From the NCBI GenBank assembly GCA_014728035.1, contig WJMJ01000101.1, forward strand, positions 1 through 64,000: 64,000 bases of DNA, read 5' to 3'. The translations under genes and the position numbers were made by a program. The first letter of the stretch is position 1. Each line of letters begins with the position of its first letter. The DNA comes from Promethearchaeota archaeon. Its GTDB lineage: Archaea > Asgardarchaeota > Thorarchaeia > Thorarchaeales > Thorarchaeaceae. The notes below the pieces were generated by a model, which was given only the letters and a program-made list of their open reading frames with translations, was not told the origin of the DNA and did not search any database. This document shows positions 19,346 to 63,510 of this stretch, piece by piece.

Positions 19346-19353
19346 TATATAAT

Positions 19354-19431
19354 TCAGGCCCTCATCCTCGGGCCTAAGCTCACCCACGATGGTGAGTAAT
19401 CTCCGGATGGAGACCATACAATGGGTGTAAT
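19354..19431 (+). ncRNA. Conserved 78-nt triple-hairpin element, copy 1 (array leader/scaffold)
   Basis: AGGCCC/GGGCCT, GCTCACC/GGTGAGT, TCTCC/GGAGA stems; near-identical copies at 19911 and 57653; TATAAT directly upstream. Confidence 0.6.
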
Positions 19432-19521
19432 GTGATGCCCATGTGCGCATGGAAGGATGGATGGAATGTCCGACAGGAGTTACGCCCACGTACGCATGGC
19501 CCCGCGTGCATGGGAGGATGG
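19432..19521 (+). CRISPR. Degenerate CRISPR-like mini-array 1
   Basis: Repeat GTGATGCCCATGTGCGCATGGAAGGATGG (19432-19460), 18-nt spacer, then a repeat with an internal duplication ending TGGGAGGATGG. Confidence 0.6.
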
Positions 19522-19853: not shown

Positions 19854-19910
19854 AATTCCTTTTCTAACAGTTTACCTTTGCATCTCATATTTATCCCTAT
19901 GATATATAAT

Positions 19911-19988
19911 TCAGGCCCTCATCCTCGGGCCTAAGCTCACCCACGATGGTGAGTAATCTCCGGATGGAGACTATACAACGGGTGCAAT
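19911..19988 (+). ncRNA. Conserved 78-nt triple-hairpin element, copy 2
   Basis: Two substitutions relative to copy 3; shares a further 21 upstream nt with copy 1. Confidence 0.6.
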
Positions 19989-20162
19989 GTGACACCACGT
20001 ACACATGGGAGTTTTCACAGTGCTCCTTTCACTCACACACTCGTAACGCCCACGTGGGAGGATGGTAGCCTCTGTAGTAGCCGTGACACCCACGTACGCA
20101 TGGGAGGATGGCATGCGATTGCTGTTGTCGTACCAACAAGAAGAATGACCGCCCATGTGCGC
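19989..20162 (+). CRISPR. Degenerate CRISPR-like mini-array 2
   Basis: Repeat variants at 19989, 20043 (23 nt), 20083 (full 29 nt) and 20145 (trailer); spacers of about 31, 17 and 33 nt. Confidence 0.65.
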
Positions 20163-20209
20163 TCACTGGAACCGCAAGTTACGCGTGGGTTAAATGGAGA
20201 GGAGTAAAC

Positions 20210-32377: not shown

Positions 32378-32931
32378 ATATGATTGACGATCCAATCTTA
32401 CAACAATTAATTTCTAAAGTAGCACAACATGAAACACAAAATGACATCGATGATATTGATGACAATATGGGTGAAGACATAGATGATACACACGATGAAG
32501 ACATAGATGATACACACGATGAAGACATTGTCGAACCAGATGATATAGGTACTAGTGACATTGTGCCCACAGAAGATGCAGACACCGAAGTGGATGCTAT
32601 TAATGCAGATATATCAGACGGCAATAATACGCCTGAAGACGATATTGATAATGATCTTAATAACAAATTCAACGAAATGGTAAACGAAGTACATCAAAAT
32701 TATAAACAAGATAGAGAGAATATATCTGATTTTATAGAATTCCTTAAACACAAGATTGAAAATGACGAAGGCATGCCTGTGCGCGTATATTATGAATCAC
32801 TGTCTTCTTGTCTGCGAACAAAATCAGAATCATCTGCTACCATGATAAAATTGCTAGACAATATCAATAAAAGAACAAATAAAGAGAGTGGTGGCCTTAA
32901 TATTAATTTGCAAGAATTATTGCAAGAATGA
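32374..32931 (+). CDS. Acidic protein, positional candidate for small terminase
   Basis: Translationally coupled upstream of terL; DIDDTHDE tandem repeat. Confidence 0.45.
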   Translation: MNMIDDPILQQLISKVAQHETQNDIDDIDDNMGEDIDDTHDEDIDDTHDEDIVEPDDIGTSDIVPTEDADTEVDAINADISDGNNTPEDDIDNDLNNKFNEMVNEVHQNYKQDRENISDFIEFLKHKIENDEGMPVRVYYESLSSCLRTKSESSATMIKLLDNINKRTNKESGGLNINLQELLQE

Positions 32932-35900
32932 ATGATTTAACCAAAAGCAAAATTAGAAAAGTCATTAAGGATTGCCAAAGTTCCTGCGATTATTTTATTA
33001 ATAAATATTGCAAAGTTAAGCACCCATCTGCTGGCATCATACCTTTTACCACTTTCTCATATCAAAAGAAATGCCTAAGAGCATTTCAAGAACACCGGTT
33101 CAACATTTTCAGTAAAACCCGACAATGCTTTGCTGAAGGTAGCATGGTTTGGACTCCTTTAGGCCCAAAACCCATAGAAAGCATAAAACCACATGACATT
33201 ATATATACATTAAAAGATGGTATTTTGACTACGGCGCAAGTCAGTAAAGTGTTTAACAATGGTTCTGCAGAATGCGTTCAGGTGCGCACCAAGTCAGGAC
33301 ATAGATCTATCAGCACACCAGATCATAAATTTTTAACCTATGATGGATATAAGGAAGCATCACTATTAACTCAAAATGATATTCTTGTGGAAGTTAATGA
33401 CCTACCTCACTATAATACAACAGATAATAGATCCAAAGCAATACTTCTGGGATACCTAATAACCGACGGATATTGTGCAGGATCTGCTCATTTTACCAAT
33501 ACCAGATGGAAATATCTATTGGATTTCCAAAAACATTACGAACTTTTGTTTAATGACAGATTGAAAATTAAGAAGCATTCAACATCTGGTTTTGGATCTG
33601 AGGCAGCATTCCGCATATGCTTGCGTAAAGACGGCAAAGAATGGCTAAAGAAATTGGGAATATGGGGATTAATAGGAGAAAATAAGCGCGTACCTAACGA
33701 AGTTTTTTCTTGGGATAATGATTCTATAGCGATCCTTATTAATAGGATGTTTGCTGGCGATGGATGGTATACAGGATCGATAAACACTAATGAGGCAGGG
33801 ATTGGATCTGAATCTAATATATTGTTGCATCAAATCAAGCAATTGTTATCAAGATTTGGCGTAAATTCAAAATATTGTCCAGCGAATAAAATATCTTTAC
33901 CTAAATTGCGCATAGTGGGTGGTAGAAGTTTTAAGAGATTTCATGATATAATAGATATATTTGGTAAGAAACCAAGACACAAAATAACGAAAGGATTTAT
34001 ATTTAACCGCAAAATTGGTCAAGTCTTGTCTGTTACGCCAGTGGACGGTAATAGACAAGTATATGATTTGCTCGTACCACCAAATCATAATTATGTGGTG
34101 GACGGAGCCGTAGTTCATAATTGCGGAGCGTCAACTCTATCTGGGTCTTTTGCTTTATGGTTTACCATGTTCTTTGGAAACAAAACAACACTCATCACCT
34201 CGAAAAGAGATAATGATGCCAAAGAATTTATGGGCAAGAATATCAGGTTTGTGTGGGATAATCTTCCTGATTGGATGAAATCAATTTGGCAACCCACAGT
34301 TGACAACGAACACGAATTTGGATTTTCCAATGGATCTAAAATTAAATCATTGCCATCCGGACCACATACATTAAGACAATTTTCATCATCTCTCAATATC
34401 ATTGATGAGGCTTCTGTATCTCCACATATGGAAGAAATGTGGGCATCTGGATCTCCCACGTTACAACACGGAGGTCGATGTTTATCCGAAGATTCATTGA
34501 TTGTTACACGAGATGGGTTGGTTTCTATAAGCAAAGTGAAAGATGGTGATGACATCATATTAGATGGTATACATAATGTAGAGTCCAAATACGTCAACAA
34601 AGACATTGAAGACACCATTTCTATAACCACTAGTGATGGACACTATGTACAAGCAACTCCAGATCATAGATTTAAAACAATAAACAATGATGGTGACATA
34701 TCATGGAAATTAGTGTCTGACTTATCATTGGGCGACCACCTAATACTCGATTGTGAAGAAATACAATATGGTAGTATACAAGAATTAGACGACAATATTA
34801 ATAAACTTATTGCTATAAAATGTGGTTGCGACAATGGATGTATTAGCTGCGCAACCTCGATGAATATGTTGAGAAATAAACATATTCCGAAGAGTCTAGA
34901 TGAGAATTTATCATTATTATTGGGGTGCGTATGGGCAAATGGGTTTATTCAAGATTGTGGCAGAATTGGTATATCATATAATAGTAAGTATGGTGATTTA
35001 TCAGATAAAATAAAATCAATAATAAATAATATACCCCATATGCACACATGGGAAGAACAACACAATGGGGATCACAGTATACGGTTTCATTCAAAGTCAC
35101 TGACACTTGCTTTGGAATTAAATGGAATTATAAAAGCATCAGCGAATTATATAGAAATACCCAGTTTGATTTTGAAATCGCCTGAAAATGTGCGTTGTTC
35201 TTTCTTGCGTGGATTTTTTGAACTAGATGGTAGTATATCAGGCGATCAAGTATCAGTGTCTTCCACCAGTCTACGCATGCTAAGACAGATACAAATTATG
35301 CTTCTTAATATGGGAATGCGCAGCATAATTGCTACGTATGAAAGAACCAATGGATATGCAGAGGGACTACAACATGAGTTAACCCTCAAAACCAAGAATG
35401 ATGTGATTAAATTTAGAGATAAAATTGGGTTTCTAAGTACTTATAAACTTAATCTTTTAAATAATGTAAATGCAACTAAGCGATCGCACAATGATCGTTT
35501 CACACATCAAAACGCAATTGATAAATTTTATGACGCCAGCAAATCTTTACCGTCAACTACTAGACAGAGAATATTACAATGCAAAAGAAATTCATCCTTG
35601 CCCAGATATCTAGCCAAAACCATGTGTGAACATGAATGTTTAAAGAATACTTCATTGGGGATATTAGCCAACACCAATAAGTTTACAGATACTATTGTGA
35701 ATTTAGAACAATCAAAATCTTATGTACAAGATATACAGGTGTCAGATATTAATTCTTATGTAGCCAATGGTTTTGTATCACACAATTGTTTAGTAGTCGC
35801 GACTAGTAATGGCATAGGCAATTGGTATTGGAAGACATGGACTGATGCGGTCGCTGGTTATAATAATTTCCACCCAATCGTTATCGATTGGTGGGATATG

Positions 35901-37082
35901 GATTGGGAAATTAGATATAAAGATTCAATAAGCGGTAAGATGATCATATTATCGCCAACGCGTAACATGAGAAAATGCAGAGATGAAAAAGAAAGAGCAA
36001 AATATGGCCCATATTGGAGTCCATGGTTAGAAAATGAATATAGACAACTGGTTGCCCGTGGCGGAGAGAATCTGTTCAGACAAGAAATATTGAGGGATTT
36101 TCTTGGTAGTGGCAATACAGTTATATCGCGTGATGCCATTTTACATATTAGGGAGACTGAAAACAGAGATTATGAAACAGTTAAAAATGTGGATTTTGTA
36201 CACCCAGTGACAGGAGATAACCACAGAATAGAATTTGATGATAACTTATGGGTGTGGAGAAAACCACAACCTGATCATGTGTATACAGTTGGTGTTGACA
36301 TTTCTGGTGGAGAATCACACGACTGGTCTGCCATAGAGGTATTTGATGTCTTGGAACAAGAGCAGGTGGCGGAGTTACAGATCAAAACCACCCCAACTAA
36401 TCTTGTAATGATGGTAGATTTCATCGGTAGATGGTATAATAATGCCATAGTAGTTCCTGAGCGTACTGGTATTGGGCAGACAGTTTGCCAAGATTTAGAA
36501 GTGGCACATTATCCACGGTTGTGGCGACGTAATATGTTACACAATGGAAAGGATAAAAATAGCACCAAAAAATCAAACCATGTTGGCTTCTTAACCACTG
36601 GATCAGGAAAACCAATCATAAATAGAGCATTAATAGATAATTTGGGTCCAGATGGATACAACATATATTCGCACAGATTATGTCAACAAATCGAAACATA
36701 TGTACATCTTGGTGCTGGTAAAACTGGTGCTGAAAAGGGCACATTAAATGATGATTTACCAATTGCATCTGGATTGGCATTTATAGGTGCAGATCAAGCA
36801 GTAGTACGTGGTAATAATATATTATTACCATTGATTTCTGATGTTAATAGTATTACCAACAAATATACTACACAAAGAAATAATGATGGACCAAAAGTAA
36901 TTAAGGACCATAATGCCCTTCAACCAGTGGGCACAAAACAGGAACCAGATAGGAATACAGACATCCAAAAGCAGGTTACCGAATTCACCACAAATCTGAT
37001 CAAACAGCCCAATGTAGAACTTCCACGGGTAAAGAAACGTAATGATAATGGTCAGAAATTGCTGTTTGGAATTCGCAAATAA
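32928..37082 (+). CDS. terL: Large terminase subunit precursor with two inteins (mature about 616 aa)
   Basis: Spliced KTRQ|CGAST Walker A, IIDEA, ATSNG, VGVDISGG, VPERTGIG, NDDL nuclease motifs. Confidence 0.95.
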   Translation: MNDLTKSKIRKVIKDCQSSCDYFINKYCKVKHPSAGIIPFTTFSYQKKCLRAFQEHRFNIFSKTRQCFAEGSMVWTPLGPKPIESIKPHDIIYTLKDGILTTAQVSKVFNNGSAECVQVRTKSGHRSISTPDHKFLTYDGYKEASLLTQNDILVEVNDLPHYNTTDNRSKAILLGYLITDGYCAGSAHFTNTRWKYLLDFQKHYELLFNDRLKIKKHSTSGFGSEAAFRICLRKDGKEWLKKLGIWGLIGENKRVPNEVFSWDNDSIAILINRMFAGDGWYTGSINTNEAGIGSESNILLHQIKQLLSRFGVNSKYCPANKISLPKLRIVGGRSFKRFHDIIDIFGKKPRHKITKGFIFNRKIGQVLSVTPVDGNRQVYDLLVPPNHNYVVDGAVVHNCGASTLSGSFALWFTMFFGNKTTLITSKRDNDAKEFMGKNIRFVWDNLPDWMKSIWQPTVDNEHEFGFSNGSKIKSLPSGPHTLRQFSSSLNIIDEASVSPHMEEMWASGSPTLQHGGRCLSEDSLIVTRDGLVSISKVKDGDDIILDGIHNVESKYVNKDIEDTISITTSDGHYVQATPDHRFKTINNDGDISWKLVSDLSLGDHLILDCEEIQYGSIQELDDNINKLIAIKCGCDNGCISCATSMNMLRNKHIPKSLDENLSLLLGCVWANGFIQDCGRIGISYNSKYGDLSDKIKSIINNIPHMHTWEEQHNGDHSIRFHSKSLTLALELNGIIKASANYIEIPSLILKSPENVRCSFLRGFFELDGSISGDQVSVSSTSLRMLRQIQIMLLNMGMRSIIATYERTNGYAEGLQHELTLKTKNDVIKFRDKIGFLSTYKLNLLNNVNATKRSHNDRFTHQNAIDKFYDASKSLPSTTRQRILQCKRNSSLPRYLAKTMCEHECLKNTSLGILANTNKFTDTIVNLEQSKSYVQDIQVSDINSYVANGFVSHNCLVVATSNGIGNWYWKTWTDAVAGYNNFHPIVIDWWDMDWEIRYKDSISGKMIILSPTRNMRKCRDEKERAKYGPYWSPWLENEYRQLVARGGENLFRQEILRDFLGSGNTVISRDAILHIRETENRDYETVKNVDFVHPVTGDNHRIEFDDNLWVWRKPQPDHVYTVGVDISGGESHDWSAIEVFDVLEQEQVAELQIKTTPTNLVMMVDFIGRWYNNAIVVPERTGIGQTVCQDLEVAHYPRLWRRNMLHNGKDKNSTKKSNHVGFLTTGSGKPIINRALIDNLGPDGYNIYSHRLCQQIETYVHLGAGKTGAEKGTLNDDLPIASGLAFIGADQAVVRGNNILLPLISDVNSITNKYTTQRNNDGPKVIKDHNALQPVGTKQEPDRNTDIQKQVTEFTTNLIKQPNVELPRVKKRNDNGQKLLFGIRK
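33126..34121 (+). mobile_element. Terminase intein 1 (LAGLIDADG, 332 aa) in Walker A
   Basis: CFAEGS...TPDHKF...LGYLITDG...MFAGDG...VVHN|C. Confidence 0.95.
34479..35786 (+). mobile_element. Terminase intein 2 (LAGLIDADG, 436 aa)
   Basis: CLSEDS...TPDHRF...LRGFFELDG...VSHN|C. Confidence 0.95.
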
Positions 37083-47783: not shown

Positions 47784-49247
47784 ATGGCCAGTTATGATTT
47801 TCCGATTCCTAACCCACGGGGCTTCAGGGCTAAAGATTCTCAGCGAAAATGCGACAAGCCCACTAGTCCAGACCCCGATAGAGCCTGCTGTCCAGACCCA
47901 ACAGAGCTAAGAGCTAATGGGTTAATTCTACATGCCCTCCTTGCTCGTGTAACAGCCAACAATAATACTGTCCACGAATTTGAAACAATTTTCGATGATA
48001 AGAGAAAACTTCTGGAGCTTGATATTCCAGATTGTTATCTTGATTTTATCGAAGATATAGAGGTCGGGCCTAACATATGTCGTTACTTGCGTTGGTTGAT
48101 GTGTGCTGGTGGTGTGGGTGGTAATTATTACCTTCAACCCATTCATCCACCAAATTCAACTAATGTAGTTATATCTGGAAATAGTACCACCGCATTTGAT
48201 TCCGCCATAAAACTTATATCTGATCACAATAACGGAACTGGCAATGAAGAGACGAATGGTGTAGTACTTGATTCTTCCAAATCTTATAAGATTTATATTA
48301 GAGATCATGATAGTCAAGACCCAATAAATGATGGTGATGATAATGAAGTCTATGGCCGTCTACTATATGATGGTACTGAATATGTAGTTGATTTTTATTC
48401 ATGGGTGGACGGGGTTGAAACCCCATATACGTTCACGACCGATGTAAATGTGGACTTGGCGTATGTTCTTGTGTCAAGACAATCGGGTGATTTGACATGG
48501 GATAAATTTGTTGATGTAGAGTTCCACGATGTTATTGATTTGCAGGGTAATCAGGGTCCTCGTGGATACCAGGGGTTTCAAGGCCCTACGGGTTTTCAGG
48601 GTGATCAAGGATTCCAAGGGGATCAGGGATTCCAAGGGAATCAGGGGAATCAGGGTAATCAAGGATTCCAAGGTTATCAGGGATTCCAGGGTCTAAGAGG
48701 ATTCCAAGGCTACCAAGGCAATCAGGGTAATCAAGGTTATCAGGGCTACCAAGGTTTAAGAGGATTCCAAGGCTACCAAGGGAATCAGGGCTATCAAGGT
48801 TATCAAGGATTTCAAGGGAATCGCGGGTTTCAAGGCTACCAAGGCAATCAAGGTAATCAAGGTTATCAGGGATTCCAGGGTCTAAGAGGATTCCAAGGCT
48901 ATCAAGGCAATCAGGGTAATCAAGGCTATCAGGGATTCCAAGGGAATCGCGGGTTCCAAGGCAATCAGGGGTTCCAGGGTCTAAGAGGATTCCAGGGACC
49001 AGCATTAGCACACAAAGCTGGTATTGTCAATGGATCTTCATTCGCTGGTAATCCCAAGACATATTCAGTGACATTTACCACAAGTTTTCCAGATACAGAT
49101 TATGCAATCACGATCACCGGTGCTGTTGAGAGAACATGGACATATGAGAACAAGACTGCAGGTGGGTTTGACATTAATTCTAATTCACCAGTGGCATTTA
49201 CTGAAGAAGTTAGTTGGATAGCTATGGTTATTGGGGAATCCACATAA
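47784..49247 (+). CDS. Collagen-like virion fibre protein (Gly-X-Gln repeats)
   Basis: About 50 uninterrupted G-X-Y triplets (GFQ/GNQ/GYQ/GLR); C-terminal VTFTTSFPDTDYAITIT domain. Confidence 0.85.
   Translation: MASYDFPIPNPRGFRAKDSQRKCDKPTSPDPDRACCPDPTELRANGLILHALLARVTANNNTVHEFETIFDDKRKLLELDIPDCYLDFIEDIEVGPNICRYLRWLMCAGGVGGNYYLQPIHPPNSTNVVISGNSTTAFDSAIKLISDHNNGTGNEETNGVVLDSSKSYKIYIRDHDSQDPINDGDDNEVYGRLLYDGTEYVVDFYSWVDGVETPYTFTTDVNVDLAYVLVSRQSGDLTWDKFVDVEFHDVIDLQGNQGPRGYQGFQGPTGFQGDQGFQGDQGFQGNQGNQGNQGFQGYQGFQGLRGFQGYQGNQGNQGYQGYQGLRGFQGYQGNQGYQGYQGFQGNRGFQGYQGNQGNQGYQGFQGLRGFQGYQGNQGNQGYQGFQGNRGFQGNQGFQGLRGFQGPALAHKAGIVNGSSFAGNPKTYSVTFTTSFPDTDYAITITGAVERTWTYENKTAGGFDINSNSPVAFTEEVSWIAMVIGEST
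48546..49001 (+). repeat. 9-bp-period coding repeat (collagen triplets)
   Basis: GG(N)-TTC/AAT/TAT-CA(A/G) units. Confidence 0.9.
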
Positions 49248-50014
49248 TGCTCAATGTTGATTTGGGGTTTGATAATACATTTCGTGTGTCGGTAAAGAAT
49301 GTTACTGGCTCATCTATTGCTGCAAACAAAGCGGTTGCGATAGCGGGATATGATGCTACTGATGATCTTCTCCAAGTGCAGTTGGCTGATAACAGTACTG
49401 GAAAACCAGCCATTGGAGTAGTTGAATCGGCCATTGATAATAATGGTATTGGAACAGCGGTAAAATATGGATTACTGCCGTATGATACTTCTGGAACTAC
49501 AATTGGTGATTTGTTATATTTAGGTACCAATGGCGATCTCACATATACATTGCCAGCTGGATTAGTTGTCAGACAAGAGCTTGGTAGAGTGGCTTATGTT
49601 AATGCGTCTGGGTATTTATATTTATTTCCCAAACCATATTCTCCATTGACTCCTGGTGTGCCGTCCATGACGACATCATTCTTTAATTCATCAGCTACTT
49701 ATCTTGAATATAATACGACATCATGGCAAGCTGCTGCCCAATGGCCTTACGTGGGAACTGATATATGGAGGCCATATACATTCGTATTGATAGCATCTAG
49801 GTCTGGCACTAGCGGCACATCTTATGTGAGGTTGGCTGATATCACGAATAATAATGAGATTTCTAATATTGCATTCACCTCGTCCACATTGGCATTTTAT
49901 GAAGATACTACACTTCTCAACTTACCAGCCAATCAAGCTATATTGGAGATTGATACACAGAAAAGTAGTGGTGGTGCATCAAAGACACGTATTCACTCCG
50001 TGGCTCTATACTAA
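49247..50014 (+). CDS. Putative structural (fibre/cement-like) protein
   Basis: Coupled to the collagen gene; PAIGVV...GDLLYLGTNGDLT motif. Confidence 0.55.
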   Translation: MLNVDLGFDNTFRVSVKNVTGSSIAANKAVAIAGYDATDDLLQVQLADNSTGKPAIGVVESAIDNNGIGTAVKYGLLPYDTSGTTIGDLLYLGTNGDLTYTLPAGLVVRQELGRVAYVNASGYLYLFPKPYSPLTPGVPSMTTSFFNSSATYLEYNTTSWQAAAQWPYVGTDIWRPYTFVLIASRSGTSGTSYVRLADITNNNEISNIAFTSSTLAFYEDTTLLNLPANQAILEIDTQKSSGGASKTRIHSVALY

Positions 50015-50035
50015 AATTCTGGGTGTATCTAAGTT

Positions 50036-52984
50036 ATGGAGGATTTTTATATGTCTATAGCTGGTATAAGTGTGTTATGTGTTGGAAGATCGTGGGATAT
50101 GCCATTCGGTATTGTGGTATGTGACGACAATGAAGATAATGTACTCTATAATATTGCTAGACATAACCCAGATGTAATCGTACTAACTGAACCAAGACCA
50201 TCATATATATTAGACTTTAGTTTTGAAATCCAGAAAAAATGTGTTATAGTGCCTAAGGATATATCTGCTGATCATGTGATATCTAATATTGAGCGCTGTT
50301 ATGTGACAAATATTTATAGCGATATGCATGAAGTTCCACTTGTAAGTGTATATACCCCAGCATATGACGCTGGGAATATGATATTGGAAACATATCAATC
50401 TCTGAAAAATCAGACATATCCACATTGGGAATGGTCGGTAGTAGATGATGGTAGCACTGATGGTACGTGGTCTACCTTGTTGGCTATTGCAAACAAGGAT
50501 AATAGAGTTCATCCTGTAAAAATCAAACATAGCGGTTATATTGGATATACCAAAAACATTGCAACTCGGTTGTCTAATGGTGATTTCTTGGTCGAATTAG
50601 ACCATGATGACATGTTAACAAACAATGCATTAGAAGAGATTGTACGCGCATTTATGGATCATCCAGAAGTTGGGATGGTATATAGTAACTGCGCACAAGT
50701 ATATTCAGATGGTAGATGCCACCAGTTTAGCGGTCCAGATTGGGAGGGTAGATATCGTGAGACTGAATATGGTGGTAAGGTATATTTGGAATGTATCAAT
50801 CCTGATATTTATGATAGATTTGGTCCTCATCATACACAGCAATTTGGTTGGTTTCTGACTATGGGTCCCAATCATGTGCGTGCTTATAGATCAAGTACGC
50901 TGTGGGAACTTGGTGGTTACAATAGTAAATTGCCAGTGGCTGATGATTGGGATTTGTTTGCTAGATTCTTTTTGAGATCACAATGTTATCATATTGATAA
51001 GATGCTATATATTCAACGGATTAGAGACAATTACAAGAACACAACTCACGTGAGAAATAAAGCAATCCAGGATAATTTGAGTATATGTAGAGCGCATTAT
51101 GAGAAGGAATTTATAGAGTTTAATAGACAAAGAATATCAGAAAATCCTAGCCTATCAGTAGTTATTTTAGATTGGAACACGAAGAATGACACAATTAAAT
51201 GTATGCAATCAGTAAAAGAATCATATCCAGATGCACAGATAATACTGGTACAGAACGGCCAACATTTCGATAGTGAATATGCCGACATTGTTGTTCCATT
51301 GGAGATTAATGTTGGATATGCGGCTGGGTGTAATCGTGGTGCCATGGAATCCAACGCAGATTTCATATGTTTCCTTAATAGTGATACTATAGTATTTCCT
51401 GGTATGTTCGCATCATTAATGAGGATGGCATCGATTGATAATGTTGGTGCGGTTGGCCCTTATTGTGATCATGCCAAACCACCACAGGGCAATTTTGGAT
51501 TAGATGATATTTTACCAGATGATTTAGAAGTGGATTCTGTTGTTGGCGTATGTATGCTTATGAGGCGTTCTGTGTTTGAATCTGTTGGTGGATTTGATAC
51601 TAGATTCTGTAATTTCGAAGACGACGATCTATGCTTGAGACTTAGACGTATGGGTTTGCGCAATATGGTTGTTGGTAAGACCTGGATACATCATAAGGAA
51701 CACGCATCATTTGAAGCTAATAATGTGCAAATAACGCGCCCCATGGAACAATCTAGGGAAAAATTCTTTGCAAAATGGCCGCGTATCAAATTGGTGGCCA
51801 TTACTTACAATGAGATAAATTCATTACCGGGGTTTGTTGAACAGTTTAAGGGCATTGTAAATGATGGCATGGCTATCCTTGATTCTGGTTCAACTGATGG
51901 TACTGTTGAATGGGCTAAGGCACATGGTATAGATGTTATGTTCCATGATTTTGATCAATTCGATAGTCAGCGTAATCGTGCCATACGTGCGCTTGGTGGT
52001 GATGCCGAATGGATCATCATGATGGACCCAGATGAGAGACTTGATGATAATACTCTCACACATTTTTATCAATTGGTTCGTTCTACTAAATATGACATAT
52101 ATCTGTCACCGCTTGTTGATTCTAATGGTGTATGGTGGGTGCCGAAACCATTTTTATTTAGAAATAAACCAGATATTAAATGGATCAATGCAGTTCATGA
52201 AAAACTTATAGGCTCACATAAACAAGCCATGGTTAAGAATTCTACCATTATGCATTGCCTAGATTTGCATAGTAAAAGCAGAAGACAGCAAATGCAATAT
52301 AAATATGATTCGCTTGGTGGTGATGCACAACTTAGTGATGAATGGCCAATTCTTAATTATGAGCATAAAGATGATGATCGCATTGATAAAATCTGCATTG
52401 GGCCACAAGTTTCGATAATAGTACCCACATATAAACGCAAGCATTTGCTGGCCAGAGCATTAGAATCAATTTATAAACAAGATTATTTGTCATATGATAT
52501 TAAATTGGTTAGTGATGGTGATAATGATATTGAGGGAGGCTACATACTACCACAGAATCACGGTGCCGGTGGTGCTGTGCCTCGCAATTATGGTATTATG
52601 CTATCATCTGGTCAGTGGATTGCTTATCTGGATGATGATAACCAGTGGCAACCAAATCATCTTTCTACCGTGATGAATGAAATAATGAAGTCGGGAGCAT
52701 TATTCGGGTTTTCGTCTATGAGCGTTGGTGGCAAACCACACATTTGTGATGAGCCGGTAAGGGGTAAAATAGATACTTCATGTGTTATACATCATCGAAG
52801 CTTGATTAAGCACTTCGGTTGGTGGAAGGATAGAACTGAGGCAAATTATTGGCATGACTGGGAATTTGTGAGTAGATGGGTTGACGCTGGAATACCGTGG
52901 GTCGCCACAAAGATACCAACGGTGATTTACAATGCCGATACTTCAGGCCAAGCGGATTACATAAGACAAATGGTGGGAGAATAG
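50036..52984 (+). CDS. Multidomain glycosyltransferase with four tandem GT2 domains
   Basis: LVSVYTPAY/ELDHDD; LSVVILDWN/FLNSD; VAITYNE/MDPDE; VSIIVPTYKR/YLDDDN. Confidence 0.9.
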   Translation: MEDFYMSIAGISVLCVGRSWDMPFGIVVCDDNEDNVLYNIARHNPDVIVLTEPRPSYILDFSFEIQKKCVIVPKDISADHVISNIERCYVTNIYSDMHEVPLVSVYTPAYDAGNMILETYQSLKNQTYPHWEWSVVDDGSTDGTWSTLLAIANKDNRVHPVKIKHSGYIGYTKNIATRLSNGDFLVELDHDDMLTNNALEEIVRAFMDHPEVGMVYSNCAQVYSDGRCHQFSGPDWEGRYRETEYGGKVYLECINPDIYDRFGPHHTQQFGWFLTMGPNHVRAYRSSTLWELGGYNSKLPVADDWDLFARFFLRSQCYHIDKMLYIQRIRDNYKNTTHVRNKAIQDNLSICRAHYEKEFIEFNRQRISENPSLSVVILDWNTKNDTIKCMQSVKESYPDAQIILVQNGQHFDSEYADIVVPLEINVGYAAGCNRGAMESNADFICFLNSDTIVFPGMFASLMRMASIDNVGAVGPYCDHAKPPQGNFGLDDILPDDLEVDSVVGVCMLMRRSVFESVGGFDTRFCNFEDDDLCLRLRRMGLRNMVVGKTWIHHKEHASFEANNVQITRPMEQSREKFFAKWPRIKLVAITYNEINSLPGFVEQFKGIVNDGMAILDSGSTDGTVEWAKAHGIDVMFHDFDQFDSQRNRAIRALGGDAEWIIMMDPDERLDDNTLTHFYQLVRSTKYDIYLSPLVDSNGVWWVPKPFLFRNKPDIKWINAVHEKLIGSHKQAMVKNSTIMHCLDLHSKSRRQQMQYKYDSLGGDAQLSDEWPILNYEHKDDDRIDKICIGPQVSIIVPTYKRKHLLARALESIYKQDYLSYDIKLVSDGDNDIEGGYILPQNHGAGGAVPRNYGIMLSSGQWIAYLDDDNQWQPNHLSTVMNEIMKSGALFGFSSMSVGGKPHICDEPVRGKIDTSCVIHHRSLIKHFGWWKDRTEANYWHDWEFVSRWVDAGIPWVATKIPTVIYNADTSGQADYIRQMVGE

Positions 52985-54287: not shown

Positions 54288-54596
54288 ATGGGCGATCGTG
54301 TCATAATCTACGGAATGCCAAATTGTGGGAAATGTGAAGCAGCGAAAGATAAGCTCAAAAGATTTAACATACCATTTGAAGAGGCATCATACGAGAAATT
54401 TGTTACTGTGCATGATGGTTGGAGAAATGATGGTAGTATAAAGGTTATGGCGGCACGCAATTATTATGGTGAGACTCATGTGCCATTGATCAGACAGAAC
54501 GGTACGGTATTTGATTATCCAAGTTTCATGAAACATTTAAAGAATAACAGATTGACACCAGACAGGAGTAAGCATGCCACCGAGGTTCGTGTCTAA
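54288..54596 (+). CDS. Glutaredoxin/NrdH-like redoxin
   Basis: IYGMPNCGKC, VPLI; AGGAGG RBS; directly upstream of nrdD. Confidence 0.8.
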   Translation: MGDRVIIYGMPNCGKCEAAKDKLKRFNIPFEEASYEKFVTVHDGWRNDGSIKVMAARNYYGETHVPLIRQNGTVFDYPSFMKHLKNNRLTPDRSKHATEVRV

Positions 54597-57396
54597 GAGA
54601 GATGGTCGTAGCGTTTTATTTAATAAAAACAAAATAACTGAATCAATACTGGCCGCATCATCTGAGGTGAAACCATTCACACGTGATGATGTCATGCCCA
54701 TAGTTGATTCAGCTATTGAATTACTGCATCATGAAAAGATCGATGCAACGTCTATTTATAAGGTAGTTGTTGATACTATACAAGGAAATGGCCATCCGGA
54801 CGTTGCAGATGCGTATGTTGATTATCGGAAGACACGCACAAATATTAAGAGTATAACTAAAGTGCGTAAGCAGGTGTCCGGCCATAATGATGCTACAGAT
54901 ATCAATTTGCTGGTAAGTCCAGAAAGTAAAGCAGAATATCATGGCTGGGATAAATCAAGAATTGCAGATGCTCTTGTGCTGGAAGCTGGTGTAAACAGAA
55001 CAGAGGCAGAAGAGATAGCCGCAATAGTTGAGAGGCGCATATTTAAATCCGGCATAACGATGGTGTCAACGTCTCTCATCAGAGAACTGGTTGACAATGA
55101 ATTATTTGAAAGAGGATATCAGAACTCACTTCAGAAACAACGTGTTATTGGTATGCCACGGCATGACATAGAAGAACTGATATTTTCTAAGAGCAAAGAA
55201 AACTCAAACATAGCGACCAACAATCCAGAAGCTGTGGGGCATTCAATAGCAGAGACTGTTCTTAAACAGTATGCATTGCAGGAAGTGTTTTCAGAAGAAG
55301 TAGCAAATGCACATAGAATGGGCATTTTTCATCTGCATGACTTGGGATACCCACACAGATTATATTGTGGAAGCCATTCCGTTGAATATATTAAGAAGTA
55401 CGGGTTGAGATTACAAAATCTTGATTCATTTTCTGCACCAGCAAAGCATGCACGTAGTCTCACCACTCAACTCAATACATTTTTAGCTAGTATGCAGGCA
55501 TATTATGCCGGTGCTCTTGGTGTTGCGCATATCAACATAATGTACGCACCATTGGTAGACGGAATGTCTGACACAGAATTGAAGCAGGAAGCACAACATC
55601 TTATATTTCAAGCATCACAATCTGCCTATACGCGGGGTGGGCAGTCGGTCCATGGTGATGAATGTATTATCATATACGACACGATCGAAGATAGAACATA
55701 TTATCCTACTATTAGTGAATTTTATCTAAATTTTGTTAAGGATCGGTATCATACATTGTCTATGAATCGATCTAATGGTATGTTGGAATGGAAATCCATA
55801 TTGGGCGTGGTGCAGCATAATCTACGATCAGAGCTTATGAAAGTAACTATAGCAAACGGTTTGTCAGGGATATTTACTGAAGATCACAGTTTGTTTACTG
55901 TAGATGATGGCCAAATTGTTGAATGTATGACAAGCAAAGCCCATAATATTATGGTATATCATGTGGGTGATATGCCAGATTATGTTTCTCTATGCGATAA
56001 GATTAGTAATGATCCAATAGCAAAGCTGTGCGATGTGAGTATCGAGCCATTTAATGATGGAAGTAAATATGTATATGATTTATCAGTAGCTGATAATGAG
56101 AATTTCTTACTATTAAATGGTATTATAGCCCACAACACGTTGTTTAGTGATTTTAATATTCATACTGGAATACCTTCATATCTGAAGGATGTGGATGCTA
56201 TAGGTCCTGGTGGTGAATATAATGGCAAGAAATACGGTGATTATGCCGAGGCGGCTACCAGGTTCACTAGAGCCATGATGGAAGTGTGGTATGAAGGAGA
56301 TGGGGATGGTCATCCAATGGCTTTCCCGAAGAGTGACTTCCACATTAGTCATGATACATTTGAAGATCCTGAGCAAGTTAAATTACTTGATTTTGCTTGT
56401 GAGACGGCAGCAAAAAATGGATCTACATATTTCATATTCGACAGAGATGAGGTTACATTATCTGCATGTTGCAGGTTGAGAACAGCAGTGCGTGATCAGT
56501 ATATGATCAAGCACCCGGAAAGTCTGCGTTTTTGTGGATTTGGGAACATAACCATCAACTTGCCACAATGTGCATATCGTGCTGGTCGTGGTAATATAAA
56601 GAAATTTCACGAAGAACTTGAGAGTGCGATGCATTTAGCTGTTGATGCGCACTTGCAAAAACGCAAGTTTGTAAATAGATTAATGAGTGGGCCATCCATG
56701 CCATTGTGGCAAGTTGGCAAGATTGCTTTTGATGGTCGTAAATATGTTGATTTAGACACGTGCACATATATTATAGGCATTATTGGCTTGAATGAATGTC
56801 TTCATTTCTTGACAGGCAAGGAACTTCATGAAGACGAAGACATGCTTCGCCAAGGACTTGAAATCATAAGTTATATGTATTTTGTGGCCAAAGAATACGG
56901 TGACATGCACAATATGAAGTTTTCTCTTGAAGAAAGTCCTGCAGAATCAGCGTCAAGACGTTTGGCCAAAATAGACGTACAAAATTATGCCTGTGCCGCC
57001 GATTTTGTGCGTGGTGATGTTGATGCTGATGAAATGTACTACACAAATTCTATTCATCTTAGGCCCGATGCAGATGTTGATATCGTAACTCGTATTAAAT
57101 CACAATCTAGATTCCATGATCTCATAGAATCTGGCGCTATTATACACGCTTTCGTAGGAGAAAATCAACCATCTCCTGGTGCAATCAAGAGTCTGGTTAC
57201 AAAGACTTTCTATAACACACATGCAGCCCAAATAACAATATCGCCAGAATTTACTGTATGTAGTTGTTGTGGGTCCATTAGAGTTGGAATGACAGACATA
57301 TGTTATAAATGTGGATCCAGGAATATTGATGCTTCGAGAGAAGACCCAAATCGCGAATTTAATGGGTGGGATAGAAACATAATCTCTCAATTGTAG
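54574..57396 (+). CDS. nrdD: Class III anaerobic ribonucleotide reductase with two ATP-cones and a mini-intein; glycyl-radical motif not found
   Basis: SKRDGR ATP-cone, FHLHDL, RLYC, RGGQ|T, SACCRL, INLP, EESPAES, YYTNS, CSCC/CYKCGS Zn ribbon. Confidence 0.92.
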   Translation: MPPRFVSKRDGRSVLFNKNKITESILAASSEVKPFTRDDVMPIVDSAIELLHHEKIDATSIYKVVVDTIQGNGHPDVADAYVDYRKTRTNIKSITKVRKQVSGHNDATDINLLVSPESKAEYHGWDKSRIADALVLEAGVNRTEAEEIAAIVERRIFKSGITMVSTSLIRELVDNELFERGYQNSLQKQRVIGMPRHDIEELIFSKSKENSNIATNNPEAVGHSIAETVLKQYALQEVFSEEVANAHRMGIFHLHDLGYPHRLYCGSHSVEYIKKYGLRLQNLDSFSAPAKHARSLTTQLNTFLASMQAYYAGALGVAHINIMYAPLVDGMSDTELKQEAQHLIFQASQSAYTRGGQSVHGDECIIIYDTIEDRTYYPTISEFYLNFVKDRYHTLSMNRSNGMLEWKSILGVVQHNLRSELMKVTIANGLSGIFTEDHSLFTVDDGQIVECMTSKAHNIMVYHVGDMPDYVSLCDKISNDPIAKLCDVSIEPFNDGSKYVYDLSVADNENFLLLNGIIAHNTLFSDFNIHTGIPSYLKDVDAIGPGGEYNGKKYGDYAEAATRFTRAMMEVWYEGDGDGHPMAFPKSDFHISHDTFEDPEQVKLLDFACETAAKNGSTYFIFDRDEVTLSACCRLRTAVRDQYMIKHPESLRFCGFGNITINLPQCAYRAGRGNIKKFHEELESAMHLAVDAHLQKRKFVNRLMSGPSMPLWQVGKIAFDGRKYVDLDTCTYIIGIIGLNECLHFLTGKELHEDEDMLRQGLEIISYMYFVAKEYGDMHNMKFSLEESPAESASRRLAKIDVQNYACAADFVRGDVDADEMYYTNSIHLRPDADVDIVTRIKSQSRFHDLIESGAIIHAFVGENQPSPGAIKSLVTKTFYNTHAAQITISPEFTVCSCCGSIRVGMTDICYKCGSRNIDASREDPNREFNGWDRNIISQL
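55645..56136 (+). mobile_element. Mini-intein (164 aa, no endonuclease) in NrdD
   Basis: RGGQ|SVHGDE...TEDHSLF...VYDLSV...IIAHN|T. Confidence 0.93.
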
Positions 57397-57652
57397 ATAT
57401 TTAGATTCCCCGCATCAAAAATAATATGTAGGCGTCAGCAATCTTACCGTTTTGATGGGGGTATGCAAATGCCAAGTTGCTGCAGGGAAGCGAAAGTATT
57501 ACACGAAGCATATTATGATGGCCATTTGTTTAGATGGTTGAGATGTGATATTTGTGGTGGTTTGCGTCTAGAGAAAGTGGACCATCAACGGGTTGCATAA
57601 TTACACCCTATGTACAATTGATGTCGGCAATATATAATATTAACTAACAATG

Positions 57653-57730
57653 TCAGGCCCTCATCCTCGGGCCTAAGCTCACCCACGATGGTGAGTAATC
57701 TCCGGATGGAGACCATACAACGGGTGTAAT
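57653..57730 (+). ncRNA. Conserved 78-nt triple-hairpin element, copy 3
   Basis: One substitution relative to copy 1, which lies 38 kb away; TATAAT at about 57633. Confidence 0.6.
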
Positions 57731-58056
57731 GTGACGTCCACGTACGCATGGGAGGATGGAAAGGAGGGCCAGCCATGGCTTCGATCTACAAGTGACGTCC
57801 ACGTACGCATGGGAGGATGACACGCCTTAGTCTCTCAGAGTCACAGTGGCCGGTGATGCCCACGTACGCATGGGAGGATGGCTTGATGTGGTTGCTTCGG
57901 CACAAAAACATTGCGTGATGCCCACGTACGCATGGGAGGATGGACTATGTAGCCGCGTGCCGCTCTTTCCGAACGTGACGCCCATGTGGGAGGATGGCCG
58001 ACGGCGAACGGTGTAGATTCGGCGTGACGCCCACGTACGTATTGTACGCGTGGATG
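57731..58056 (+). CRISPR. CRISPR-like array 3: 29-nt repeat GTGAYGYCCACGTACGCATGGGAGGATGR, 5 spacers
   Basis: Repeats at 57731, 57792, 57853, 57915, 57975 (23-nt variant) and 58024 (degenerate trailer); unique spacers of 32, 32, 33, 31 and 26 nt; about 61-bp period like type I-E. Confidence 0.88.
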
Positions 58057-58074
58057 ATATAGGAGGTATATATT

Positions 58075-58353
58075 ATGGGATATTATATTCGTACATGGTT
58101 CGCTTGGGTGATATCGGCACACCATTTTTGCGATACTATTTCTTTGGCAGCAAGAAAATCCAAATTTGACAAAGGAATTGAATCATTGAGAATGATCTAT
58201 CAAACAATAGACAATCTTGGATGGCGATATTATCCAATGAAATTATATATATATCTGTATCATAATGATCAGATGGATCTTTTCTCATTATATAATGAGA
58301 TGTCAATATATAAGGATTCGGACAAAAATATTAAAACAAAATTGCCTACATAG
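58075..58353 (+). CDS. Hypothetical protein downstream of array 3
   Basis: AGGAGGT RBS. Confidence 0.55.
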   Translation: MGYYIRTWFAWVISAHHFCDTISLAARKSKFDKGIESLRMIYQTIDNLGWRYYPMKLYIYLYHNDQMDLFSLYNEMSIYKDSDKNIKTKLPT

Positions 58354-60929: not shown

Positions 60930-62099
60930 ATGATAGAAGAATTACGTAGTCAATTAAAGCGTTACGAAAACATCATTGAAAACCGCAAAATAAATCCGGT
61001 TGAAGAAAATCCTGAATCTCAGCGTATATGGCAGAACCGTATTTGTGACCGTATGGATGAGATCAGGGATAAAATCAAGTCACTAGAACAGAAACAAAAT
61101 CATACCCACAGCAACGCCAAGAAAATCATTTTGAAAAATGAACAATCTCCAGGTGATATTGTGATGTTAACTGCGGCGGTACGTGATCTGCATCTGAGCC
61201 ATCCTGGGAAATTTATTACGGACGTCCGCACCTTATTCCCAGATATTTGGTTGCACAATCCATATATAACGTCACTTAATGAAGAAGACGATGATGTGGA
61301 TGTTATAGATATGCAATATCCAATTATACATAATAGTAATGATGGGGCTTACCATTTTATACATGGTTTTAGCATGTTTCTGGAAGATCAACTTGGGATT
61401 AGAATTAAGGTGCATAAATTCCAAGGAGATATTTATTTAAGCGATGAAGAAAAATCCTGGGTCAGCATGGTCGAGGAACATTATACACACGAGGATACAC
61501 CGTTTTGGTTAATATGTACTGGTGGTAAGACTGACTATACTGCAAAATGGTGGATTGCAGAATATGCACAAGAGGTGGTGGATCATTTTGTTGGCAAGAT
61601 TCAATTTGTACAGTTTGGTGCGGAAGGAGAAGGACATTATCATCAACGTCTACATAATGTGATAGATTTGATAGGCAAAACTGATATTCGTATGTTTATG
61701 AGATTGATGTATCATGCGGATGGTGTAGTGTGCCCCGTGACTATGGCCATGCATCTAGCTGCAGCAATACCAACAAAACCAGGAAAGCCAAAAAACAGGG
61801 CATGTGTGGTGACAGCGGGTGGTAGGGAGCCAAGTAATTTTACATTTTACACAAATCATCAATATCTTCACACTAATGGCGCGTTGAAATGCTGTGATAA
61901 TGGGGGTTGTTGGAAAAGTAGGACTGATAGACTGGGCGATGGAGACCATAAAGACAACGAATTGTGCGTTGATACTGTGCAATTCAATGGTCGTAAGGTA
62001 CAGCGTTGTATGTACGAATGCGTGAAGCCAATAGATGTGATCAGAGCAATTGAGAAACATTATGATGGTGGGGCATTGAATTTTGGAATATCAACATAA
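60930..62099 (+). CDS. GT9 (ADP-heptose:LPS heptosyltransferase-like) glycosyltransferase
   Basis: PGDIVMLTAAVRDL, NPYI, AKWW, DLIGKT, TMAMHLAAA. Confidence 0.85.
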   Translation: MIEELRSQLKRYENIIENRKINPVEENPESQRIWQNRICDRMDEIRDKIKSLEQKQNHTHSNAKKIILKNEQSPGDIVMLTAAVRDLHLSHPGKFITDVRTLFPDIWLHNPYITSLNEEDDDVDVIDMQYPIIHNSNDGAYHFIHGFSMFLEDQLGIRIKVHKFQGDIYLSDEEKSWVSMVEEHYTHEDTPFWLICTGGKTDYTAKWWIAEYAQEVVDHFVGKIQFVQFGAEGEGHYHQRLHNVIDLIGKTDIRMFMRLMYHADGVVCPVTMAMHLAAAIPTKPGKPKNRACVVTAGGREPSNFTFYTNHQYLHTNGALKCCDNGGCWKSRTDRLGDGDHKDNELCVDTVQFNGRKVQRCMYECVKPIDVIRAIEKHYDGGALNFGIST

Positions 62100-63510
62100 A
62101 CTGGGCATCGTATTGCCTACTAATATACGAGGAATCAGAGATAAGATTCTGATTAAGGAATCTGGTAGGTTCGTATCACAATGTCAAAGTAAACTTAATG
62201 CGCTTGTGGCAGTATCAAATTGTGACGATGATATATTGGGATTCAAGGCAGATGTTCACATAAAATGTGATAAAGATGGTATTGTGAATCCAACTATCAG
62301 AATGATAGATAGATTGAAGAACAAATGTCAATATATAATGAGAGTCACACAAGACACAATTATCGATTTTGATGAATTCATAAAGACATTCGATGAGGTT
62401 GATGGCACTGATAATTTTATATGTGGTGGCAAGGCATCGCTTAACAACATACAGATGGAACGCACTAAAGGTAGGGCCAATGCATTAGGAATATCTATTT
62501 CTGATGGTAGAGATTACGTGCAGGGCAATGTCATGTTGGCACCTACACGTGTGTGGTTGGAATATTATTATCGTGTGGCTCAGGTGGTAAAACACTATGG
62601 TGATGATTCATTATTGTCTCGTATAGCTAATAAAAATGGCATTGAATTGCGATTTGTGGAAAAGTTCTGGCAACATAAGCACATAAAAGTAGATAGAGTC
62701 AATATTAAGAAACCATTAATAGCTAGTTTCCCGAGATCTGGAACGCACTTTTTAATAAATACTATTAAAGATAACTTCATAGACGTTGATAATGGGTGGG
62801 TAGATGTTGTCCATGGTGTTAAGCACAGGTGGGTTAAAGATGTCAAACCAGATGGTAGTAATTTGTCAGAAAAGATCAGGGAACAGTTGATCAAATATGG
62901 CGAATCGCCCGTGCGCAAACCTCTTAAGACACATTATCAGTTTTACTTCCTGGAGCGCCATTGGGATGTGATAAAAGAACTCTATGATGTGTTCTATATA
63001 ATTCGCGACCCAAGAGACGTAATGGCAGCATGCTTCAATTATTATAATAAAACTAATTTTGAGATTTTCATAAAAGAGAAGAATTTCTCTAAATTTTTGC
63101 GCCATGAGCTTTGGAATGCACATTCAGAGACACAACCATTTTCTTTTAGCCTCGTTAAACCTCGCAATATAGTTGACAAATGGAATAAGCACGTCCATAG
63201 CTGGATGACATTTGTAAATAGAGGCGTGACTTTGATTAAATTTGAGGACTTAAATCAAAATCCGACAAGAGTAATAAATCATATCGAGAATGAAACGAGT
63301 CAGAATAAAATAAATGACAAAATTAAAATAGTTGACATTAATGATAAAAGATATCGACCTGATTACGAGGGAGATAATCCGAGAGGTATTGGGTGCTGGA
63401 AGCATTATTTTAATTTAGATGACATTGACTGGTTGTATGGGGGAATCAATTTTGCACAGATATATACAAATACGACAGCCGAAAACCAAACAGCACACAA
63501 CATCCATTAA
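62083..63510 (+). CDS. GT-like domain fused to a sulfotransferase
   Basis: IASFPRSGTHF, LKTH, IRDPRDV, IKFEDL, RGIGCWK. Confidence 0.82.
   Translation: MEYQHKLGIVLPTNIRGIRDKILIKESGRFVSQCQSKLNALVAVSNCDDDILGFKADVHIKCDKDGIVNPTIRMIDRLKNKCQYIMRVTQDTIIDFDEFIKTFDEVDGTDNFICGGKASLNNIQMERTKGRANALGISISDGRDYVQGNVMLAPTRVWLEYYYRVAQVVKHYGDDSLLSRIANKNGIELRFVEKFWQHKHIKVDRVNIKKPLIASFPRSGTHFLINTIKDNFIDVDNGWVDVVHGVKHRWVKDVKPDGSNLSEKIREQLIKYGESPVRKPLKTHYQFYFLERHWDVIKELYDVFYIIRDPRDVMAACFNYYNKTNFEIFIKEKNFSKFLRHELWNAHSETQPFSFSLVKPRNIVDKWNKHVHSWMTFVNRGVTLIKFEDLNQNPTRVINHIENETSQNKINDKIKIVDINDKRYRPDYEGDNPRGIGCWKHYFNLDDIDWLYGGINFAQIYTNTTAENQTAHNIH

Follow-up and report, generated by a model that had tools for sequence, protein, structure and literature searches.

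Introduction

Which protein, if any, makes use of a conserved structured RNA that leads directly into an array of repeats and spacers? This question is raised by a 64,000-nt stretch of DNA registered under a Promethearchaeota archaeon (GenBank assembly GCA_014728035.1, contig WJMJ01000101.1, positions 1 to 64,000 of the forward strand). The whole stretch, hereafter the window, makes up the first 64 kb of C70, a contig of 121 kb in a draft assembly of 4.3 Mb. At three places in the window, the same 78-nt element is followed by CRISPR-like arrays. A first-pass annotation of the window interpreted these loci as a novel guide-RNA system, in which a cis-encoded scaffold and its guide array are used either by a host Cas complex or by an effector encoded outside the window. 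Here, we report that the element belongs to a structured RNA family whose first loop covaries with the 3' end of the repeat, that a Cas12f-like protein with a dead active site is encoded between two further copies on another contig, and that the protein, the RNA, and a partner protein occur together at other loci. We consider it likely that these modules are guide RNAs for a phage's own dead Cas12f-like protein, which would bind DNA without cleaving it.

A three-hairpin RNA fused to repeats and spacers

The three copies in the window, designated a, b, and c (starting at 19354, 19911, and 57653 on the + strand), carry 1, 2, and 0 mismatches to the 78-mer, respectively, where 0 matches are expected by chance. 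All these mismatches are located 3' of hairpin 3, so that the hairpins themselves are mismatch-free, as the first-pass annotation had stated; it was also right that the element is better conserved than the repeats (97-100% versus 72-100%). In the whole draft genome there are six copies, three on C70, two on contig C131 (C131a and C131b), and one on the minus strand of contig C74, and a genome-wide search with a covariance model recovers the identical six and no others. All six lie on T4-like phage contigs, and each runs into units of a 29-nt repeat and a spacer of about 32 nt. In module C131a, the linker and the 5' part of the repeat differ, whereas the 3' end, UGGGAGGAUGG, is unchanged. No Rfam family matched at gathering thresholds across the whole window.

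Folded alone, the 78-mer forms three hairpins (-29.4 kcal/mol, z = -2.6), and the 60-nt hairpin core of the C131a copy, which has one loop substitution, gives z = -3.6. Copy c (57653..57730, +) is supported by its fold, by compensatory changes in homologues, and by the covariance model (E = 2.7e-9). Hairpin 1 occupies 57655-57674, with the putative anti-repeat or pseudoknot loop at 57661-57668, and the fold places hairpin 2 at 57677-57696 and hairpin 3 at 57699-57712. The linker that follows (57713-57730) includes a second anti-repeat, GGGUGU at 57722-57727, which is able to pair with ACGYCC of the first repeat. The complementarity noticed at first between the 8-nt loop of hairpin 1, UCAUCCUC, and the last 8 nt of the repeat is real: the loop forms seven Watson-Crick pairs and one G-U pair with GAGGAUGG, or eight Watson-Crick pairs with GAGGAUGA. 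When the scaffold and the first repeat of 13 modules were folded with RNAfold, all showed hairpins 1-3 and then pairing of the linker with the repeat's 5' half, which left the last 7-8 nt of the repeat single-stranded.

The ends of the repeats are informative in their own right. The shortened 23-nt repeats at 20043 and 57975 retain the 3' end, as had been pointed out before, and so does a shortened repeat at the metagenome locus L031 (see below), whereas the terminal repeats have lost it. Because the short repeats keep this end and the terminal repeats lose it, the unit seems to be a repeat followed by its spacer, as in type V systems, with an essential repeat 3' end.

A nuclease-dead Cas12f-like protein between two modules

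No cas gene had been recognised in the window, and none was found when part of its open reading frames (ORFs) was scanned. The suggestion that an effector might be encoded elsewhere has gained a candidate on C131, where a 463-aa protein is encoded between modules C131a and C131b (C131:7211-8602). It matches Cas12u3/Cas12f in PADLOC (E = 4e-19) and OsCas12f (PDB 9nzq) in a phmmer search (E = 1.5e-6). The best Foldseek match of its AlphaFold2 model (predicted local distance difference test score 80.5) is AsCas12f (8j12; E = 1.8e-17, template-modelling (TM) score 0.52-0.58), and the complex of a natural nuclease-dead Cas12f (dCas12f) with its guide RNA, 9n9c, stands sixth among the structural matches (E = 1.7e-15). 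The protein has the WED-REC-RuvC core of the Cas12f/TnpB fold and is closer to the Cas12f models than to the TnpB models.

The active site is dead. In a HMMER alignment, the RuvC-I Asp is replaced by Ala (LEVAFT) and the RuvC-II Glu by Phe (IEVFNM), the chain stops before the zinc finger and RuvC-III, and Pfam OrfB_Zn_ribbon has no match in the protein. In other words, it has neither an intact RuvC Asp-Glu-Asp triad nor a zinc-finger (TNB) domain. Without its RuvC catalytic residues, zinc finger, and RuvC-III, the protein would be expected to bind DNA but not to cleave it. A tblastn search found no second copy anywhere in the genome. Whereas a word-indexed protein search returned the query alone, an exhaustive search yielded a family of 189 clusters at E <= 0.001, including 132 at E <= 1e-10, and the 18 members that were aligned show the same catalytic, zinc-finger, and RuvC-III losses. 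Pattern searches in IMG/VR and in species-representative genomes found no members, and the family is known almost only from metagenomes.

The RNA beside homologues of the protein

Twelve homologues were looked up on metagenome contigs and proved to represent eleven distinct contigs. Ten of the eleven have at least one of two elements, the scaffold or an array ending in the complement of the loop; the remaining contig, L033, stops 176 bases beyond the gene, and its match to the model is marginal (E = 0.52). The cas gene sought as a companion of the element is therefore found elsewhere as well, in the form of dead-Cas12f homologues beside the same RNA architecture. The modules lie upstream or downstream of the gene, with tandem copies in L023 and L031. 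Their scaffolds form the same three-hairpin element although the sequences are very different. In an alignment of 11 scaffolds from nine loci, the three stems reappear under RNAalifold, with compensatory double changes at 14 of the 17 stem pairs. A model derived from the alignment detects 18 scaffolds, often several per contig; of the 13 loci searched, 11 gave a match, including 10 of the 12 that have a homologue. These results place the proposed cis-encoded scaffold within a conserved structured RNA family.

A further regularity concerns the loop and the repeat. In every distinct module the repeat tail is complementary to the hairpin 1 loop, and both change together between loci: besides UCAUCCUC/GAGGAUGG in the window modules, the loop/repeat pairs are ACUCUCA/UGAGAG, ACUUGCU/GGCAAG, ACUUCCG/UGGAAG, UCUGUAG/UACAGG, GCUGUAG/CUACAG, GCCUGUG/CACAGG, GCCUGUA/UACAGG, ACCGCAA/UUGCGG, ACCCAUG/CGUGGG, ACUCGCC/GGCGAGU, and UUCCCCGUU/AACGGGG. 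Even on a single contig, L022, two modules have different pairs (CCUGUG/CACAGG versus CCUGUA/UACAGG). Among eight distinct modules, each loop forms 5-7 Watson-Crick pairs with its own repeat (mean 5.75), compared with a mean of 3.3 for cross pairs; shuffling the partners attains the observed total in 0.015% of trials (permutation p = 0.00015), and the helix extends to the last repeat nucleotide in seven of the eight. The pairing is 6-8 nt long, with compensatory changes over some ten scaffold/repeat combinations from unrelated metagenome contigs. Complements of a module's own loop also recur downstream of the scaffold at the period of the array; in array c they stand at 102, 163, 224, 286, and 340, counted from two bases upstream of the scaffold. 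The idea that loop 1 serves as a short anti-repeat thus agrees with its behaviour across loci. We also considered the loop as an anti-Shine-Dalgarno sequence directed against GGAGG in the repeat, and rejected this because UACAGG, UGAGAG, and other unrelated sequences maintain the pairing in homologues.

All Cas12 and TnpB guide RNAs are reported to share a conserved pseudoknot, in which a 5' region pairs with the nucleotides that immediately precede the guide (PMC10097598). In our modules, too, the nucleotides just 5' of the guide can pair with the 5' region of the scaffold, and the loop-repeat helix corresponds to this pseudoknot. As far as the sequence allows us to judge, each module is a natural single-guide RNA, a tracr-like scaffold (from trans-activating CRISPR RNA, tracrRNA) fused to the first repeat, with more repeat-spacer units behind it.

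A possible third component is a homologous protein of about 205-230 aa, which adjoins the gene or the scaffold in five loci, roughly half of those with homologues: C131:10076-10768 (230 aa, right after array C131b), L015 6855-7469, L031 3836-4495, L032 3744-4361, and L022 3391-4002. These proteins share a motif around MS.PQ..EV and DHI.RL.LYG. The C131 partner has no Pfam, PHROG, or PADLOC family; Foldseek against PDB gave no match at E <= 0.001, and a wide VIA search reached only Z <= 4.4, with one long helix matched.

In two places, L018 and the upstream copy of L016, the scaffold carries a single guide without an array. These single-guide modules (L018 4298-4460 and L016 806-925) lie directly upstream of the dead-Cas12f gene, and the guide overlaps the gene's own ribosome-binding site and start codon. 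Autoregulation of the dead-Cas12f gene is possible at these two loci.

Putative promoters, intact arrays, and decayed arrays

Upstream of copy c, a consensus scan and a motif search found a promoter-like site (57611..57638, +; TGTACA, 16 nt, TATAAT) that ends 14 nt before the scaffold. In the other window copies, the motif search and the sequence show GATATATAAT abutting the scaffold (19344-19353 and 19901-19910, +). An AT-rich motif of the TATAAT type is located directly upstream of five of the six copies and would be the promoter, with transcription starting near it; the exception, C131b, sits after the stop codon of a small Cys-rich ORF. Small Cys-rich (zinc-ribbon-like) ORFs were seen just upstream of the scaffold or the gene at window 57463-57600, C131 9455-9640, L016 618-800, and L017 3-167, and when aligned they gave no convincing evidence of homology. 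Small ORFs with strong ribosome-binding sites also stand right after arrays b and c (window 20210-20392 and 58075-58353), with no family match.

The array coordinates confirm that the element runs straight into 29-nt repeats with unique spacers. Mini-array c (57731..58056, +) has four 29-nt repeats with a 61-62-nt period (57731-57759, 57792-57820, 57853-57881, and 57915-57943), a short 23-nt repeat (57975-57997), and a terminal repeat (58024-58052) in which the 5' half is kept and the 3' end is gone; five unique spacers lie between them (57760-57791, 57821-57852, 57882-57914, 57944-57974, and 57998-58023). The other two arrays in the window are shorter. Scaffold a (19354..19431, +), with its one mismatch in the linker, leads into the decayed mini-array a (19432..19521, +), which consists of a repeat (19432-19460), an 18-nt spacer, and an aberrant 43-nt repeat (19479-19521) still ending in GGGAGGATGG. 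Scaffold b (19911..19988, +), with both its mismatches after hairpin 3, leads into mini-array b (19989..20175, +), where the first repeat (19989-20011) is without its 3' end and is followed by a 23-nt repeat (20043-20065), a full repeat (20083-20111), and a degenerate terminal repeat (about 20146-20175).

The decay of arrays a and b raises the question of whether function is confined to the first unit (scaffold, first repeat, and first spacer), acting as a fixed single-guide RNA like those of dCas12f-sigmaE or TldR systems, with the rest being leftovers. The array-less modules of L018 and L016 would fit this, and so would the published single guide RNAs of dCas12f, with guides of 14-16 nt (PMC13472631). 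On the contrary, in arrays c and C131b there are still 4-5 regularly spaced, well-conserved repeats whose 3' ends are intact, and the homologous loci L016, L031, L032, and L020 have arrays of five or more units. Because of these regular, conserved repeats and long homologue arrays, we argue for selection on the downstream units, and we regard a function confined to the first unit as unlikely.

Phage contigs in an apparently archaeal assembly

The contigs that carry the 78-nt element derive from a T4-like phage. The window codes for a portal protein, a UvsX-like recombinase, a DnaB-like helicase, SSB, and intein-bearing forms of the large terminase and of NrdD; C131 codes for a Gp23-type major capsid protein (Pfam E = 2e-76); and C74 codes for ThyX, dCMP deaminase, RNA ligase, and a tail-fibre-like protein. 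A search for relatives of the window region in a phage collection gave no match. The assembly is estimated to be 98% complete with 8.5% contamination. The bin looks archaeal because, despite this completeness, the rest of the assembly has no transfer-messenger RNA and no sigma-70 region 2 domain. Since the contamination estimate leaves room for it, C70, C74, and C131 may have been mis-binned with this assembly.

Several other features of these contigs should be mentioned. At window 32928-37082 and 54574-57396 are the genes for the large terminase and for the anaerobic ribonucleotide reductase NrdD: in the former (1,384 aa), endonuclease/helicase-like inserts, probably inteins, interrupt the terminase segments, and the latter bears an intein splicing domain. 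Glycosyltransferase genes are unusually dense for a T4-like phage, and are accompanied by a sulfotransferase and a collagen-repeat protein (window 14335-19345, 20900-23118, 47784-52984, and 60930-63510). On C131, the neighbours of the Cas12f-like gene are DUF7919, a RAMP-like (repeat-associated mysterious protein-like) protein, the Cys-rich ORF, and the 230-aa partner, and no adaptation genes were seen among the neighbours scanned. The RAMP-like protein (C131:8701-9438, true start probably 8749) has a glycine-rich C-terminal loop and, in its Atlas model, a resemblance to Csm3 (TM 0.59). Its family comprises over 7,000 proteins of about 200 aa, almost all from tailed phages and with no Pfam family; because this large phage family is not found beside dead-Cas12f homologues, we rejected it as a Cas6/Cas7-type partner. 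A non-coding tract of about 100 nt (C131 8603-8700) separates the Cas12f-like gene from the RAMP-like gene, and on the JGI contig with the closest RAMP-like homologue (L024 2500-3000), a non-coding tract of about 470 nt after that gene is full of GCAAAGGC-type motifs.

Mini-arrays of phages that borrow host Cas proteins are known. By this precedent, the modules could be mini-arrays with which the phage exploits a class 1, type I-E-like complex of the host together with its adaptation machinery, the 78-mer being the leader. The 29-nt repeats, 32-nt spacers, and 61-nt period fit such a system, the conserved 8-nt 3' end of the repeat resembles a class 1 5' handle, and the lack of adaptation genes beside the modules or on the C131 stretch scanned would be natural if the host supplied them. 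The evidence from the assembly itself gives no support to use of the modules by a host class 1 complex. Its sole other CRISPR arrays have a 31-nt repeat that ends in GGGTTGAAAG and is unrelated to the 29-nt phage repeat, although this assembly may not be that of the phage's host; these arrays and the only Cas1 match, on the unrelated short contig C104, are located on C36 (6330-6600), C83 (8470-8815), and C104 (413-1270), and the seven spacers of the arrays have no match in the phage contigs. No exact copy of the 21-nt repeat pattern occurred in the genomes of 185,579 species (GTDB, one per species), and neither this repeat 21-mer nor a scaffold 22-mer was found in JGI metagenome contigs. In addition, the supposed leader is structured and has 55% GC, instead of being AT-rich and unstructured; it covaries with the repeat 3' end; the terminal repeats lack the 3' end, not the 5' end; and the only recognisable cas-like gene at the loci is the dead Cas12f homologue. 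We therefore find the hijacking of a type I-E-like host system very unlikely.

Spacers and targets

The 21 post-repeat 32-nt segments, of which about 19 are true spacers, were compared with the 4.3-Mb assembly (blastn-short), where there were only chance matches of 13-17 nt, and their first 16 nt were compared with the phage contigs, where the two matches found at <=2 mismatches equal the chance expectation. Against 50,697 phage records, arrays c and C131b gave a best match of E = 4 over 23-25 nt; the matches of array c span spacer-repeat borders, whereas the C131b match lies almost wholly within one spacer. Because the GC content of the spacers (44-78%) is above that of the phage (38%), foreign targets are suggested. 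A scaffold 18-mer had one match in IMG/VR, a chance match within a coding region.

The missing targets bear on another possibility. Repeat-mimic RNAs of phages are known, and the modules might be RNA anti-CRISPRs or decoys that soak up a host Cas protein; many dispersed and partly decayed copies, short repeats, and the lack of detected targets are what one would expect of them. Yet no known host repeat was matched in the assembly or in the genome and metagenome collections searched, the better arrays have unique spacers of regular length, the phage brings a matching protein of its own, and the RNA-protein pairing recurs in many unrelated contigs. A role as decoys appears very improbable to us.

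Proposed mechanism

We propose that guide RNAs of a dead Cas12f-like protein would work as follows. Each of the six modules is probably transcribed as one RNA from its own promoter, and perhaps processed later. This RNA would consist of the 60-nt three-hairpin core, the linker, and then the repeat. The linker would form a repeat:anti-repeat stem with the 5' half of the first repeat, whose final 7-8 nt would pair with the hairpin 1 loop in a pseudoknot directly before the spacer. The layout would be that of a Cas12f/TnpB single-guide RNA, derived from the natural fusion of a tracrRNA-like scaffold and the first repeat. For the downstream repeat-spacer units, the scaffold may act in trans, like a tracrRNA with a short anti-repeat, or these units may be partly vestigial. 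The 463-aa protein of C131 most likely loads the RNAs via their three-hairpin core, repeat:anti-repeat stem, and pseudoknot. Once assembled, the complex would bind DNA that matches the guide and leave it uncut, serving as a roadblock to, or a regulator of, the genes of the host, rival elements, or the phage, and the conserved partner of about 205-230 aa (C131:10076-10768) may act together with it. Published precedents are RNA-guided DNA binding by dCas12f proteins (PMC13472631) and interference by binding alone in Cas12m (PMC11013384).

The main objections to this interpretation are the following: (i) a geometry of 29-nt repeats and 32-nt spacers is also typical of type I-E; (ii) there is one effector gene for six dispersed modules, and it lies on another contig than the window, where the assignment of C70, C74, and C131 to one phage is inferred from the shared element and the phage gene content; (iii) none of the three spacer searches described above, in the assembly, the phage contigs, and the phage records, gave a protospacer; (iv) GATATATAAT is so near the scaffold that a start 7 nt downstream of it would clip the first base pairs of hairpin 1; and (v) arrays a and b are shorter and decayed, the first repeat of b being without the pseudoknot strand, so that not all modules need be functional.

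A more far-reaching version, which we put forward as a tentative and rather doubtful idea, is that the partner is a recruited effector, taking the part that sigma-E plays in the published system; that the phage thereby programmes, during infection, the transcription or replication of genes of its host or of rival phages at many sites; and that the scaffold-fused array is a living intermediate linking systems with a separate tracrRNA and array to fused single-guide RNAs. With regard to the last point, it has been proposed that Cas12f lineages without RuvC-III fused a half repeat to the tracrRNA (PMC10691335), and a module with an array still behind the fusion looks like an intermediate in such a series.

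These findings reveal a miniature type V system, complete-looking yet cleavage-incompetent, in a T4-like phage whose guide modules are distributed among at least three regions of the genome. They also show that selection acts on the short pairing of loop and repeat in a family that numbers about 190 protein clusters. The model is concrete: a compact natural DNA binder (about 400-460 aa) that recognises arrays via a 60-nt scaffold. It would also be a case found in nature of the fusion between tracrRNA and repeat that has been proposed as a step in the evolution of dCas12f guide RNAs. In practical terms, very small binders that can be programmed by simple, multiplexed guide arrays are of interest, and in biological terms, what phages regulate with them.

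Comparison with known systems

Type V-F Cas12f systems (AsCas12f, OsCas12f, and Un1Cas12f1) provide the best sequence and fold matches. They share with our modules the unit of a repeat followed by a spacer, the adjacent array and tracrRNA with an anti-repeat (here, arrays flank the C131 gene on both sides), and a guide RNA composed of stems, a repeat:anti-repeat duplex, and a guide-adjacent pseudoknot (PMC10097598). The differences are that the tracr-like scaffold is fused in cis to the first repeat instead of being a separate gene, that the second anti-repeat is merely a hairpin loop of 6-8 nt, that the protein has other residues in place of the catalytic Asp and Glu and lacks the zinc finger and RuvC-III, and that no adaptation genes (cas1, cas2, or cas4) were seen among the neighbours scanned. 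Short anti-repeat complementarity to the repeat is also a property of the scoutRNA. The scoutRNA of Cas12c/d, however, is a separate gene that is not fused to an array. Cas12m likewise binds without cleavage (PMC11013384), but Cas12c/d and Cas12m are other protein families of other sizes. The TldR proteins of prophages (bioRxiv 10.1101/2023.11.30.569447) are, like the protein described here, phage-encoded, nuclease-dead, miniature RNA-guided DNA binders expected to regulate genes, but they descend directly from TnpB, use a single omega-like RNA without arrays, and are linked to fliC or oppF.

The closest comparison is with the natural dCas12f systems of Bacteroidota (Hoffmann et al., Nature 2026, PMC13472631; PDB 9n9c/9n9m). 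These have the Cas12f fold, a C-terminal truncation that removes part of the RuvC site, and a guide RNA scaffold 5' of the guide, all of which are found here. The published single guide RNA is 85-105 nt long with a 14-16-nt guide, as determined by RNA immunoprecipitation sequencing (RIP-seq), and the scaffold and first repeat described here together measure 107 nt. On the other hand, the published systems have an operonic sigma-E (rpoE, with a C-terminal extension, and often a helix-turn-helix (HTH) protein), whereas Sigma70_r2 was not detected assembly-wide, no HTH domain was seen in the neighbours scanned, and the conserved partner here is another protein. The sequence-level PDB search did not return 9n9c. 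Moreover, our system is borne by a T4-like phage and has six dispersed scaffold-plus-array modules in place of one locus. The same study briefly noted a CRISPR-array-associated dCas12f cluster, with guide RNAs upstream of CRISPR arrays, in one extended-data figure (PMC13472631), and it is possible that the dead-Cas12f family described here is this cluster.

The initial claim of a novel guide-RNA system has to be narrowed accordingly, given that the pseudoknot is known (PMC10097598) and that array-associated dCas12f has already been mentioned (PMC13472631). The components are of a known kind, namely type V-F/dCas12f and the Cas12 pseudoknot. In comparison with these systems, what appears to be new is the T4-like phage setting, the six dispersed scaffold-array modules, the conserved partner protein, the size of the family, and the explicit covariation evidence for an anti-repeat formed by a loop of 6-8 nt.

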